NCBI GenBank assembly: GCA_046733835.1
Contig: JBKPQA010000111.1
Span: 1-37,060 of the forward strand
Direction: 5' to 3'
DNA: 37,060 nucleotides
DNA from: Actinomycetota bacterium
GTDB lineage: Bacteria > Actinomycetota > Actinomycetes > Actinomycetales > Dermatophilaceae
The translations under genes and the position numbers were made by a program. This document shows positions 212 through 36,641 of this stretch, piece after piece. Below the pieces are notes generated by a model. That model did no database searches, was not told the DNA's origin, and was given only the letters and a program-made list of their open reading frames with translations. Numbering within the stretch: position 1 is the first letter of the stretch; each line of letters begins with the position of its first letter.

Positions 212-1105
212 GTGCACGCCCTCGCCCCTGCCCTTCCCACCCTCCACGAGCGGGTCAACGGCTGGTATGCGTCGAACGCTCGCCCGCTGCCGTGGCGGCT
301 GCCTGGCACCTCCCCCTGGGCGGTCCTCGTCTCGGAGGTCATGTCGCACCAGACCCCCGTCGCGCGGGTCGAGCCGGTCTGGCGCGACTGGCTGACCCGG
401 TGGCCGACGCCGGCCGACCTGGCCGCCGACGCGGCCGGCGAGGCGATCCGGGCGTGGGGCCGGCTCGGCTACCCGCGTCGAGCGCTGCGTCTCCATGAGG
501 CGGCGCGCGCGATCGTAGACCGCCACGGCGGAGAGGTGCCGGACAACGAGGAGGCGCTCCGCGCCCTGCCCGGGATCGGCGCCTACACCGCCGCCGCGGT
601 GGTCTGCTTCGCGTTCCGGCGACCGACCGTCGTGGTGGACACCAACGTCCGGAGAGTGCTGGTGCGCACGTTGCGAGGAGAGGCGCAGGCTGCACCGGCG
701 ATGACCCGCACCGAGCGTGACCTCGCGGCCCGCGCGATGCCGGCGGACCCAGACGACGCGGTCACCTGGAACGTCGCGGCGATGGAGGTCGGAGCGCTGG
801 TCTGCACCGCGCGGTCTCCCCGCTGCGGCGACTGTCCGGTCAACGACCTCTGCGCGTGGAACCAGACCGGCCGACCCGCATACACCGGCCCCGTCCGCCG
901 CGGACAGGCCTGGCGCGGCACGGATCGACAAGCCCGGGGTGCGTTGCTCGCCGTCCTGCGCGCCGCTGCCGCGCCGGTCAGCGGCACGGATCTGACGCAG
1001 GTCTGGTCCTCCGAGCAGCAGCGGGTGCGCTGCCTTTACTCGTTGGTCGCTGATGGTCTCGTCGAGCCGCTAGCAGGAGACCGCTACCGCCTCCCCGCCG
1101 ACTAG
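212..1105 (+). CDS. mutY: A/G-specific adenine glycosylase MutY (short actinobacterial form)
   Basis: RPLPWR, VLVSEVMSHQT, LGYPRRA, HhH LPGIGAYTA, VDTNVRRV and Fe-S motif C-x6-C-x2-C-x5-C. GTG start chosen 1 nt after the disA stop. Confidence 0.93.
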   Translation: MHALAPALPTLHERVNGWYASNARPLPWRLPGTSPWAVLVSEVMSHQTPVARVEPVWRDWLTRWPTPADLAADAAGEAIRAWGRLGYPRRALRLHEAARAIVDRHGGEVPDNEEALRALPGIGAYTAAAVVCFAFRRPTVVVDTNVRRVLVRTLRGEAQAAPAMTRTERDLAARAMPADPDDAVTWNVAAMEVGALVCTARSPRCGDCPVNDLCAWNQTGRPAYTGPVRRGQAWRGTDRQARGALLAVLRAAAAPVSGTDLTQVWSSEQQRVRCLYSLVADGLVEPLAGDRYRLPAD

Positions 1106-1133
1106 GCGGGATCCCTGCAGGTATCGGAGGGGA

Positions 1134-1191
1134 GCGAGAGGTCCCCGCGACCTATCGACGCGATGCGGCGAAGATCGTGGGAGAACCTCGC
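1134..1191. repeat. Imperfect inverted repeat between convergent mutY and gntP (possible bidirectional terminator)
   Basis: GCGAG...CTCGC termini with arms of about 27 nt that pair with several mismatches. Confidence 0.45.
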
Positions 1192-1198
1192 GGGTGCC

Positions 1199-33074: not shown

Positions 33075-33910
33075 CGGTGCGCGGCCACCTCCCGGAGCAC
33101 CGCGAACGCGTCGCGGGTGCCCGCGACGTCGTGGACGCGGACCCCCCAGACGCCGCCCTGGGCGCAGACCACGCTGGTCACCGCGGTGGCGATGTCGCGG
33201 TCAGTCGGCGGCCGGGGGTCGCCGCCCTCGGGGACGCCGATCCGACCGAGGAACGTCTTGCGGGACGCTCCCACGAGCACCGGCTGCCCGAGCGCGACCA
33301 GGGCCTCCAAATGCGCGAGCAGCGCCCAGTTGTGCGCGGCGTGCTTGGCGAACCCGAGGCCGGGGTCGAGGACCAGCCGCTCGGCAGCCACCCCCGCCGC
33401 CAGGATGGCGTCGCGGCGGGCGGCCAGCTCGTCGCATACCTCCTTGACGACGTCCTCGTAGACCGCCCGGCTCTGCATGCGGGTGCTGTGCCCGCGCCAG
33501 TGCATGGCCACGTAGGGGCATCCACGCTCGGCGACCAGCGACACCATGTCGGGGTCGGCGAGCCCGCCGCTGACGTCGTTGACGACCGAGGCGCCGGCGT
33601 CGAGAGCCTGGGCGGCCACCTCACACCGCATCGTGTCGACGGAGAGGACGACGTCCTCGTCGGCCAGTGCCTCGATGACGGGGAGCACTCGCCGCAGCTC
33701 CTCCGCGACACTCGGTCGCTCCGCTCCGGGCCGGGTCGACTCGCCGCCGATGTCGACGAGGTCCGCACCGTCGGCGACAAGAGCGCGCCCGTGCGCGATG
33801 GCCGCGCCTGGTTCGAACCAGTACCCACCGTCGCTGAACGAGTCCGGGGTCACGTTGACCACGCCCATGAGCACCGGACGCCCGTCCGCGGTGGGGAGGC
33901 CGCTGGTCAT
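33071..33910 (-). CDS. folP: Dihydropteroate synthase
   Basis: [45 protein letters not shown]. Confidence 0.96.
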
Positions 33911-34479
33911 CGACCGCCGCCGGCCAGCAGCGACATCGCCTCGGCTCGGGTGGCGGGGTCGCGGAGCTGGCCGCGGACGGCCGAGGTGATGGTGCGGGAG
34001 CCGGGTTTGCGGACGCCGCGCATCGCCATGCAGAGGTGTTCACAATCAACGACGACGATGACGCCCTGGACGTGGAGATGCTGGACCAGGGAGTCGGCGA
34101 TCTGGGTCGTGAGGCGTTCCTGCACCTGCGGACGGCGGGCGAACACCTCGACGAGCCGGGCGATCTTGGACAGCCCGGTCACCCGACCGTCCTTGGCGGG
34201 GATGTAGCCGACGTGGGCGACGCCGTGGAAGGGGACGAGGTGGTGTTCGCAGGTGCTGTAAACCTCGATATCGCGCACGATGATCATCTCGTCGTGATCG
34301 ATGGCGAAGGTCGTCTTCAGGATTTCGTCGGCCGACCGATCCAGGCCTGCGAACGTCTCGGCGTATGCCCGTGCCACTCGTTGCGGGGTGTCGCGCAGCC
34401 CTTCACGGTCGGGATCCTCACCGATGGCGAGGAGCAGCTCACGCACCGCCGCGGCGGCACGGTCGTGGTCGACCGCCAT
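33907..34479 (-). CDS. folE: GTP cyclohydrolase I
   Basis: [45 protein letters not shown] at 34479. Confidence 0.96.
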
Positions 34480-34496
34480 CCTCGTCAGTGGTCCCT

Positions 34497-36641
34497 TCAG
34501 TGGTCTTCTGAGGGGTTGACCCGCCCGCCGTCCGGGACCTCGATGACGTGGCTCCGCGGCTCCTCCTCGGCGAGGGGGTGCGCGCCGGCTTCCGCCGCCT
34601 CGTCGATCTTGTGGCCCATCTCCTCGTCGCCGCTGGCGTCCTGTGGAGCGTGTCCCTTGGGACCGTAGCCGTTGCGGTTGTAGCCGTTCTGGCCGTTGCT
34701 CCCGTTGGTCATCGCGTCCCGCTCGGCCGGCGTCAACACCGGCGGGATGTCGCTGAGCAGGCGGGACTCGCTGGACAGCCACGTCGGCCGCATCGGGCGC
34801 TTCCGCACGCCGGCGAAGATCCGCGCCAGCTCGGCGCCGCCCAGGGTCTCGTGCTCCAGGAGCTCGAGGACGAGCTGGTCGAGGACGTCGCGGTTGTCGT
34901 TGATGACGTGCCAGGCCTCGTCGTGCGCGTTCTCGATGAGCTTGCGGACCTCCTCGTCGACGACGCCGGCGATCTCCTCGCTGTAGTCCCGCTGGTGGCC
35001 CATGTCCCGGCCGAGGAACACCTCGCCGGTGCTCTGGCCGAGCTTGATCGCGCCGACCCGCTCCGACATGCCGTACTCGGTGACCATCTTGCGGGCCATC
35101 GCGGTGGCCTTCTCGATGTCGTTCGCGGCGCCGGTCGTCGGGTCGTGGAAGATCATCTCCTCCGCGACCCGGCCGCCCAACGCATACGCGAGCTGGTCGA
35201 GGATTTCGTTGCGCGTGGTCGAGTACTTGTCGTCCTGAGGCATGACCATCGTGTAGCCGAGGGCGCGGCCACGCGGCAGGATCGTCACCTTGGTCACGGG
35301 GTCGGTGTGGTTCATCGACGCGGCGACGAGCGCGTGACCGCCTTCGTGGTATGCGGTCATCTTCCGCTCGGCAGCGGACATGATGCGCGTCCGCTTCTGC
35401 GGGCCGGCGATGACGCGGTCGATGGCCTCGTCGAGCGTGTGGTCGTCGATGTACTTCTTACTGCTGCGTGCGGTGAGGAGCGCGGCCTCGTTGAGGACGT
35501 TGGCCAGGTCGGCGCCGGTGAAGCCCGGGGTCCGGCGGGCAACGGCGAGCAGGTCGACGTCGGGCGCCATCGGCTTGCCCTGGGCGTGCACCTGGAGGAT
35601 CCGGTTGCGCCCGAGCATGTCTGGCGTGTCGACGGCGATCTGCCGGTCGAAGCGACCGGGCCGCAGCAGCGCCGGGTCGAGGATGTCGGGCCGGTTGGTG
35701 GCAGCGATGAGAATGACGTTGGTCTTGACGTCGAAGCCGTCCATCTCGACGAGCAGCTGGTTCAGCGTCTGCTCGCGCTCGTCGTGTCCGCCGCCGAGGC
35801 CCGCGCCACGGTGCCGGCCCACCGCGTCGATCTCGTCGACGAAGACGATGGCCGGCGCGTTGGCCTTGGCCTGCTCGAACAGGTCGCGGACCCGGGACGC
35901 ACCCACACCCACGAACATCTCGACGAAGTCCGAACCGGAGATCGAGTAGAACGGCACGCCGGCCTCGCCCGCCACCGCCCGCGCTAGCAGCGTCTTACCG
36001 GTGCCCGGCTGGCCGTAGAGCAGCACGCCCTTGGGGATCTTGGCGCCGACGGCGAGGAACTTGGCCGGCTCCTGGAGGAACTCCTTGATCTCGTGCAGCT
36101 CCTCGACGGCCTCGTCACATCCGGCGACGTCGGCGAACGTCACCTTGGGCGTGTCCTTGGAGGCCAGCTTGGCCCGGGACTTGCCGAACTGCATCACGCG
36201 GGAGCCGCCGCCCTGCATCTGGCCCATGAGGAACCAGAAGAGGCCGAGCACGATGATGATCGGGATGAGGCTGACCAGCATCGAGCCGAACCAGTTGGTC
36301 TCGTCGATCTGGTCCGTGTAGCCGTTCGGCGGGAGGTGGTTGTCGAGGGCCTGCACGACGTTCCCGCCCCGGGCCTCGACGTAGTACGCATACACCTTGG
36401 TGGCGTTCTTGACCTTGTCGCCGTCAGAGAATGTCTCACCCTGCTTGAGCGTCAGCTCCATCCGCTCGTTGTTGATGAGCTTGGCGGAGTCGACCTTGCC
36501 GGTGTTGATGAGGTCGAGGGCCTTCGACGTGTCGATGCGCGTGAAGCCGCCGTTGTCCGACAGCGACAAGACGAGGATCGCTGCGCCGATGAGCACAACG
36601 ATCCACAGCATCGGCGTGCGAAAGATGCGCTTGAAGTCCAT
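34497..36641 (-). CDS. ftsH: ATP-dependent zinc metalloprotease FtsH
   Basis: Two TM segments, [30 protein letters not shown] zinc motif; AGGAGG upstream. Confidence 0.97.

Follow-up and report, generated by a model that had tools for sequence, protein, structure and literature searches.

The hexamer GCATAC is strongly over-represented on both strands of a 37,060-nucleotide stretch of the genome of a Lapillicoccus-like soil actinomycete in the family Dermatophilaceae (GenBank assembly GCA_046733835.1, contig JBKPQA010000111.1; this whole stretch is hereafter called the window), and its sequence statistics suggest that it is apparently an undescribed directional DNA signal acting like Chi. The word is enriched, is spaced in a strand-specific manner, is preferentially retained between species, leaves a one-sided footprint in base composition, lacks replichore polarity, and occurs in lineage dialects. 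That GCATAC serves as some kind of directional signal in repair or recombination we consider fairly probable; to the narrower proposal, in which it acts like Chi and a translocating break-repair or recombination enzyme reads it on one strand, we give roughly even chances. No description of a GCATAC signal was found in a literature search that did not extend to REBASE, to subscription journals or to the methylome tables in supplements, and the literature likewise yielded no description of a Chi-type signal for actinobacteria or AdnAB; in the accessible part of the AdnAB paper PMC13000450, Chi is confined to the references.

The first-pass annotation of the window had counted 23 GCATAC and 22 GTATGC in DNA estimated at about 70% G+C, with C as the 5' base in 38 copies, G in seven and A or T in none, and about six A/C/T-CATAC copies combined; a recount gave the same 45 copies at the same positions, the same 5' bases, a sum of six, and a G+C content of 0.699. 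Its remark on rare codons was also correct for the GGCATAC site at 6211, which reads GGC ATA in the frame of a DUF2461 open reading frame (ORF, window 6069-6863). The source genome (G000; a 2.08-Mb assembly in 292 contigs, 52% complete, with 2,165 genes called by our own hexamer-model caller) contains 2,358 GCATAC in 2,084,838 bases, or 1.13 per kb counting both strands, against 400 expected under a second-order and 647 under a third-order Markov model, and CGCATAC occurs 1,773 times against 143 and 214 expected, respectively. The density lies between 0.57 and 2.3 per kb in each of the 177 contigs longer than 5 kb, and is 1.04 per kb inside genes and 1.85 per kb outside. On a preference for core over acquired DNA, as known for Chi, the signs are mixed: low-GC3 genes (low G+C at the third codon position) of this incomplete genome show no depletion of the word, and two lower-GC stretches of a relative, G199, carry fewer sites.

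Within genes, 1,943 copies were found against 431 after a within-gene shuffle of synonymous codons, which rules out a codon or dipeptide artefact. All six frames are enriched (observed/shuffled: 630/101, 77/13, 213/56, 116/12, 141/84 and 766/166); of 1,881 Ala-Tyr pairs, 630 are written GCA TAC, yet GCA accounts for 5.7% of alanine codons. The first-pass annotation had allowed that the enrichment might vanish under a codon-aware null model or be missing from the rest of the genome; it passes that test because it exceeds the codon shuffle in all six frames, and it is present genome-wide. An Illumina adapter contains the dialect CGGCATAC, but an adapter artefact was ruled out, the longer adapter word having no copies in the source genome and the sites being in frame in genes and kept in orthologs. 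The enrichment is thus confirmed as real and strong. The missing 5' A is not a property of the motif, as had been implied, because ANNNTA/TANNNT words are depleted 10- to 30-fold across the genome (e.g., ATCATA, 4 copies against 82-158 expected), which we take to be a probable avoidance of the TANNNT -10 promoter element. Neither a second half-site of the bipartite restriction type near GCATAC nor a fixed distance of the word from start codons was found, except for overlap with ATG.

The spacing of the sites depends on the strand: copies on one strand avoid each other to about 1.5 kb, and copies on opposite strands do not. Adjacent sites in the source genome are in opposite orientation in 1,275 cases and in the same orientation in 792. 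Relative to expectation, same-strand pairs are reduced to 0.51-0.82 at distances up to 1 kb and to 0.83-0.88 up to 2 kb, and reach about 0.96 beyond, while opposite-strand pairs remain at 0.96-1.2. GCATAC ranks first of 740 hexamers in same-strand avoidance (635 same-strand against 1,056 opposite-strand pairs at 20-800 bp). CGCATAC repels itself (ratio 0.66), GGCATAC (0.63) and TGCATAC (0.61), and is indifferent to common one-mismatch words such as CGCGTAC and CGCATCC (0.93-1.04); a few rare one-mismatch words gave 0.65-0.75 on small counts. GGCATAC and TGCATAC follow the spacing of CGCATAC, so that it is the hexamer which sets the spacing, a correction to the SGCATAC motif first proposed. The usage of synonymous opportunities for the word climbs from 0.23 to 0.55 with the distance to the nearest same-strand site (z 10.9) and is flat, at 0.27-0.36, with the distance to the nearest opposite-strand site (z -1.7). 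Spacing of this kind recurs in 16 pooled CGGCATAC loci, which are orthologous regions and not fully independent, with 15 same-strand and 63 opposite-strand pairs closer than 300 bp. In the window itself, same-strand gaps are about 1.6 kb (coefficient of variation 0.7).

This local directionality is not accompanied by polarity along the replichores. A complete enriched chromosome gave 43 against 42 copies by strand in ten 20-kb samples; 800 kb of the related genome G009 that resemble a single replichore gave 337 against 376, and the per-contig strand imbalance in the source genome has a variance 0.39 of the binomial value (127 contigs). The word is therefore strand-unbiased at the chromosome scale, as first described. 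The FtsK orienting polar sequences (KOPS) are likewise short asymmetric words that are read directionally, but KOPS-like octamers are skewed over these 800 kb of G009 (69 to 37). Chi had been set aside earlier for lack of polarity, which overlooks that by its spacing and footprint the word is locally directional, a Chi-like property.

The footprint was measured at fourfold degenerate sites, with codon box, the base that follows and location within the gene adjusted for. The adjusted G+C is raised 30-700 bp 3' of GCATAC (+0.006 and +0.011; z 5.7 and 9.8), with a shift of about zero on the 5' side, and G over C is raised on the GCATAC strand (z 5.1 and -6.6); of 351 hexamers, GCATAC and CGCATA take the first two places for G+C and for skew alike. 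A multi-bin regression places both effects mainly 3' of the word, the G+C effect out to about 1.2 kb and the skew to about 2 kb; a smaller skew of the opposite sign appears up to 700 bp 5' of template-strand sites. The sign is identical in all 15 neighbour contexts tabulated, the effect is additive where two zones overlap, and at twofold sites the A/T-ending fractions fall from 0.106 and 0.108 outside the zones to 0.092 and 0.096 in the two-zone overlap. Both orientations leave the footprint inside one replichore of G009; in that genome the skew has a z of 5.0 with none of 207 controls as large; in the pooled CGGCATAC loci z is 4.4, with none of 250 controls as large. Elsewhere, against matched nulls, the skew gave z 1.8-1.9 in G015 and G095, 1.1 in G199 and nothing in G148, and the G+C part z 1.5 to 3.0 in the relatives and nothing in G148. 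Substitution classes tabulated by zone disagreed between two genome pairs. As a separate observation, G-C transversions dominate the fourfold-site divergence of G009 from G020 and from the source genome (about 120 per 1,000 sites, against 27 per transition class).

Sites are also preferentially retained between species. Ten overlapping pairs across a single region of 100 kb retained 523 of 744 sites, against 0.16-0.55 for one-mismatch words represented by at least 28 cases; retention was higher for isolated sites, rising from 0.59 to 0.77. A new same-strand site was found near lost sites at a rate of 0.196 against 0.110, and a new opposite-strand site at 0.112 against 0.169. In an independent 260 kb at 82% identity, 173 of 300 sites were retained, against 0.30-0.43 for five one-mismatch words. 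The gains and losses arise by many different changes.

The word is common across much of the Dermatophilaceae, in agreement with the earlier suggestion that it is lineage-wide. We surveyed 80 loci, some of them from other groups, and 160 genomes of the family, and counted dialects in 59 family genomes (G007, G017, G221, G226 and G233 enter denominators only). The nearest named relatives by LysS are Lapillicoccus sp. (96% and 87%), and in the locus survey Lapillicoccus carries CGCATAC, while CGGCATAC is found in most loci of Pedococcus, Knoellia, Nostocoides and Phycicoccus elongatus, the cultured, non-pathogenic Knoellia locipacati (L054) and Pedococcus bigeumensis (L045) being examples; no enrichment was seen in loci of other Phycicoccus, Janibacter, Nocardioides and Micrococcaceae. 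GCATAC is bimodal among the 160 genomes, by hand count, with 62 below 150 per Mb and 98 at 210-1,800 per Mb. In a class-wide draw, CGGCATAC was enriched in both genomes that belong to the family (357 and 604 per Mb), and the 198 genomes from outside it showed no enrichment (maximum about 52 per Mb).

The lineage dialects of the word are CGGCATAC, HCGCATAC and CGGCATCC, with CGNCGTAC perhaps a further one. Two genomes low in GCATAC carry neighbouring words instead, G095 with CGGCATCC (367 against 45 in 340 kb) and G148 with CGGCGTAC (213 against 41 in 300 kb). In the dialect count, CGNCGTAC reaches at least 1.5 per kb in five of 59 genomes and CGGCATCC about 0.7 per kb or more in six, two of which also have CATAC. 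The dialects are scattered on the AdnA tree and switch inside genera, as between G015 and G011 or G016, and between G095 and G144 or G179. Outside the family, about 40 of the 198 genomes (hand count) have CGNCGTAC at 1 per kb or more, part of which may be codon usage. CGGCATCC and CGNCGTAC are candidate equivalents of GCATAC, because their spacing and footprint are weak or absent. CGHCATCC was tried as a missing dialect and rejected, since it accounts for G054 alone of 42 genomes, and a blind scan of low genomes (100-340 kb each) for a repelling word found none above noise. A further dialect may exist in Rothia, where R. terrae (locus L027) has an excess of GCGTCC (38 against 7) and Rothia sp. 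(locus L010) one of CGGCGTCC (12 against 1.5).

The candidate readers were then considered. AdnA was found in all 60 entries searched, representing 59 distinct genomes, and was not found in the source genome, which is 52% complete. For the covariation analysis, 54 of 58 extracted AdnA proteins were kept by length and a tree was made with FastTree. In the N-terminal half of AdnB, one column near M. smegmatis residue 160 is Trp in all five CGGCATCC genomes. Two adnAB pairs are apparent in G124 (C1:17385-21553 and C2:138791-143022), and in G011 a divergent AdnA-like gene (C2:3019955-3023140) accompanies the first. NucS is present in five of five genomes, whatever the dialect. AdnAB is the obvious candidate, but AdnA does not covary with the dialects, and RecC is absent; that AdnAB reads GCATAC is a tentative idea that we rather doubt.

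If GCATAC is a Chi-like signal, an enzyme that loads at a break or a free end and travels inward would change its activity at a correctly oriented site, and a second site on the same strand within about 1 kb would add little. Both orientations would be needed everywhere, for two-ended breaks or for both ends of incoming DNA. We infer a directional enzyme because the redundancy is confined to the same strand, both orientations occur everywhere, and the consequence is one-sided. The 3' zone would be a recombination or repair-synthesis tract: with the geometry of Chi, it would be the heteroduplex tract if GTATGC is read, and, with GCATAC as the strand read, a tract that is resected and then resynthesised. 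A bias in conversion or in repair synthesis might favour G+C, and G over C, in this zone, and selection, or hitchhiking with the tract, could spread alleles that create sites. A simple model in which NucS rejects G:G but not C:C mismatches fits the direction of G over C but gives the wrong C/T sign. Like Chi of RecBCD in E. coli and of AddAB in Firmicutes, GCATAC is a short asymmetric word with an excess in all frames and with lineage variants, and the orientation-dependent, one-sided effect of Chi is suggested for GCATAC by spacing and composition.

A number of results weigh against this reading. GCATAC is unrelated to Chi in sequence and is not polarised with replication, whereas typical Chi is; it occurs once per 0.9 kb, against about once per 5 kb for Chi in E. 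coli according to the accessible part of bioRxiv 2020.08.13.249359; in favour of the reading, that paper describes non-polarised Chi candidates in Vibrio and a weakly polarised Chi in H. influenzae. RecC was found in none of five genomes, and the host lineage has AdnAB. The AdnA columns separate the dialects no better than random sets, the AdnB Trp column doubles as a clade marker and is present in three CATAC genomes, and about 16 sampled family genomes lack all four tested patterns despite having AdnA. In the 100-kb region, three unrelated control words of preferred codons were retained at 0.74-0.92, and the retention of GCATAC climbs with opposite-strand distance as well, from 0.62 to 0.77, if less regularly. 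Spacing is weak for CGNCGTAC (78 against 109) and CGGCATCC (58 against 69), the opportunity test shows no spacing effect for either, and their footprint is weak or absent. For the G+C component, G009 gives a weak footprint when set against a null of its own (z 1.5), and the lower divergence between species 3' of sites (+0.017, standard error 0.007) is only suggestive, as controls are about equally noisy.

Two rivals predict much the same statistics as the Chi-like reading and are live. The first, which we regard as unlikely, is that GCATAC is where an enzyme nicks or marks a single strand, setting off strand-specific excision or resynthesis that runs for about 1-2 kb, in a process resembling mismatch repair that would operate beside NucS and need no double-strand break. 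It likewise predicts spacing by strand, no polarity, and fewer mutations on one side; its range resembles the site spacing that Dam/MutH repair requires, and GCATAC has the shape of one-strand N6-methyladenine sites with a penultimate A. That A is lost, however, in the CGGCATCC dialect, the lack of a shared methyltransferase in six families leaves nothing obvious to distinguish the new strand from the old, and no single repaired strand explains both the shift of G over C and the fall of T at twofold sites.

The second, to which we give a small chance, is an uptake-type drive at the single-strand stage of transformation or conjugation, in which a fragment recombines better if the entering strand has the word. 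Such a drive explains a one-sided recombination tract, ComEC is present in five of five genomes, and the dialects recall those of the Neisseria DNA uptake sequence (DUS) and the Haemophilus uptake signal sequence (USS). Further likenesses to DUS and USS are the density of about one per kb and the lack of chromosome-scale orientation bias (both compared with the accessible part of PMC1939737), placement by silent changes, and conservation. But uptake by these sequences is reported there to be independent of orientation, which predicts orientation-blind spacing, and both the spacing and the footprint of GCATAC depend on strand, which weakens classical orientation-blind uptake. GCATAC also has few inverted pairs of the terminator type (just 22 intergenic pairs within 60 bp), the Gram-positive host has no known receptor, and ComEC occurs in genomes with and without the word.

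It is very unlikely that the word is an RNA-polymerase signal, a cryptic promoter or pause, through which both strands would be pervasively transcribed and subject to transcription-coupled repair. GTATGC resembles a -10 hexamer minus its last T, the density is higher between genes, and such a process would be one-sided. However, a second box is lacking, the word keeps no set distance from start codons, the true -10-like form with a 5' A is strongly avoided, and the footprint lies upstream of GTATGC instead of downstream and is not limited to dipyrimidine contexts.

An origin as a by-product of a methyltransferase, as with HIP1 (the highly iterated palindrome of cyanobacteria) or Dam GATC, with deamination or methyl-directed repair creating the sites, has very little in its favour. 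Frame-independent, genome-wide enrichment at high density and a spacing more even than random are shared with these words; GCATAC, in contrast, is non-palindromic and strand-specific, and its sites are gained and lost by many different changes. A search that began with a loose first pass, using six Pfam families in five genomes each, with PglX not covered by its own model and with room left for an unknown fold, found no DNA methyltransferase common to enriched genomes, so that a HIP1- or Dam-type origin is unlikely: a C5 methyltransferase is present in one of five enriched genomes, the enriched and 99% complete G016 has none of the six families, and a regular-expression screen of proteins from the 52%-complete source genome for methyltransferase motifs gave none. 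The co-occurring orphan methyltransferase for which the first-pass annotation had suggested looking was thus not seen in these genomes, and of its proposal of a methylation-driven, repair-driven or uptake-type signal, the repair-driven form is compatible with the data while methylation and classical uptake are disfavoured. Finally, a primase start site for Okazaki fragments would fit the 1-2 kb per-strand spacing and the sawtooth skew of G over C but is hardly credible, as there is no replichore polarity, both orientations leave a footprint in one replichore, and G+C rises instead of falling.

Table 1. GCATAC sites in the window, from a word count (strand: +, GCATAC; -, GTATGC on the forward strand)
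Element	Position	Strand	Remark
Dispersed array, 45 GCATAC sites	265..36393	both	31 of 44 neighbours in opposite orientation
CGCATAC	265..270	-	
CGCATAC	878..883	+	
CGCATAC	2121..2126	+	
CGCATAC	3968..3973	-	
CGCATAC	4303..4308	+	
CGCATAC	4345..4350	+	
CGCATAC	4848..4853	-	
GGCATAC	6211..6216	+	ATA codon in DUF2461 ORF frame
CGCATAC	7212..7217	-	
CGCATAC	7343..7348	+	
GGCATAC	7817..7822	+	
GGCATAC	8846..8851	+	
CGCATAC	9599..9604	-	
CGCATAC	11664..11669	+	intergenic, between convergent genes
CGCATAC	11693..11698	-	intergenic
CGCATAC	11735..11740	+	intergenic
CGCATAC	14406..14411	-	
CGCATAC	14479..14484	-	
GGCATAC	16207..16212	-	
CGCATAC	16952..16957	+	
GGCATAC	17407..17412	-	
CGCATAC	17452..17457	-	
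CGCATAC	17636..17641	+	
CGCATAC	19869..19874	-	
CGCATAC	20669..20674	+	
CGCATAC	21299..21304	-	
CGCATAC	22941..22946	+	
CGCATAC	23859..23864	-	
GGCATAC	24333..24338	+	
CGCATAC	24392..24397	-	
CGCATAC	24609..24614	-	
CGCATAC	25520..25525	+	
CGCATAC	26113..26118	+	
CGCATAC	28354..28359	+	
CGCATAC	29192..29197	-	
CGCATAC	29951..29956	+	
CGCATAC	30751..30756	-	
CGCATAC	31169..31174	-	
CGCATAC	32556..32561	-	
CGCATAC	32621..32626	+	
CGCATAC	33434..33439	+	
GGCATAC	34363..34368	-	
CGCATAC	35182..35187	+	
CGCATAC	35349..35354	-	
CGCATAC	36388..36393	+	

Three of the sites fall within 80 bp around a terminator-like hairpin between convergent genes (window 11660-11756). The window also carries a MutY-like gene (134-1105), an SNF2-family helicase gene on the minus strand (8231-10699) with weak similarity to SCO1167/SCO6262 and DrmD-type models, a repair cluster consisting of ORFs for an Fpg/Nei glycosylase, Ku, and a split LigD ligase and primase-polymerase (15346-21674), and an Lsr2 gene (21815-22153). 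Nothing in the analysis connects these repair genes to GCATAC, and no cognate protein was identified among the genes of the window, as had been said of it before.

Other words and regions stood out in the surveyed loci. GAATTC is in excess at five Kocuria loci (L033, L037, L039, L040 and L047; 8-10 copies against 0.3-0.5 in about 20 kb), which are orthologous and so non-independent, and the excess is possibly linked to an orphan methyltransferase. TGATCA is over-represented at L009 (56 against 14) and L075 (20 against 3). Locus L158 (G024:C1:4500001-4520000) is a 39% GC stretch within a 69% GC chromosome, and is either a large foreign island or a misassembly.

The direction of repair and the upkeep of about 70% G+C in actinobacteria, which to our knowledge lack MutS, are made testable by a specific word, and GCATAC offers within-genus dialect switches and a measurable one-sided footprint. 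Strand-specific spacing combined with a one-sided step in composition is a general detector of directional signals that are missed by screens for replication polarity. In a bolder form, which we think improbable, actinomycetes would use an undescribed directional octamer family, CG-N-C-R-T-M-C and its derivatives, with CGNCGTAC among its forms, that a protein reads without methylation and that starts strand-specific repair or conversion every 1-2 kb on both strands. If true, this family would be the strand or recombination signal that is missing from MutS-less bacteria, and would help to explain their high G+C content.

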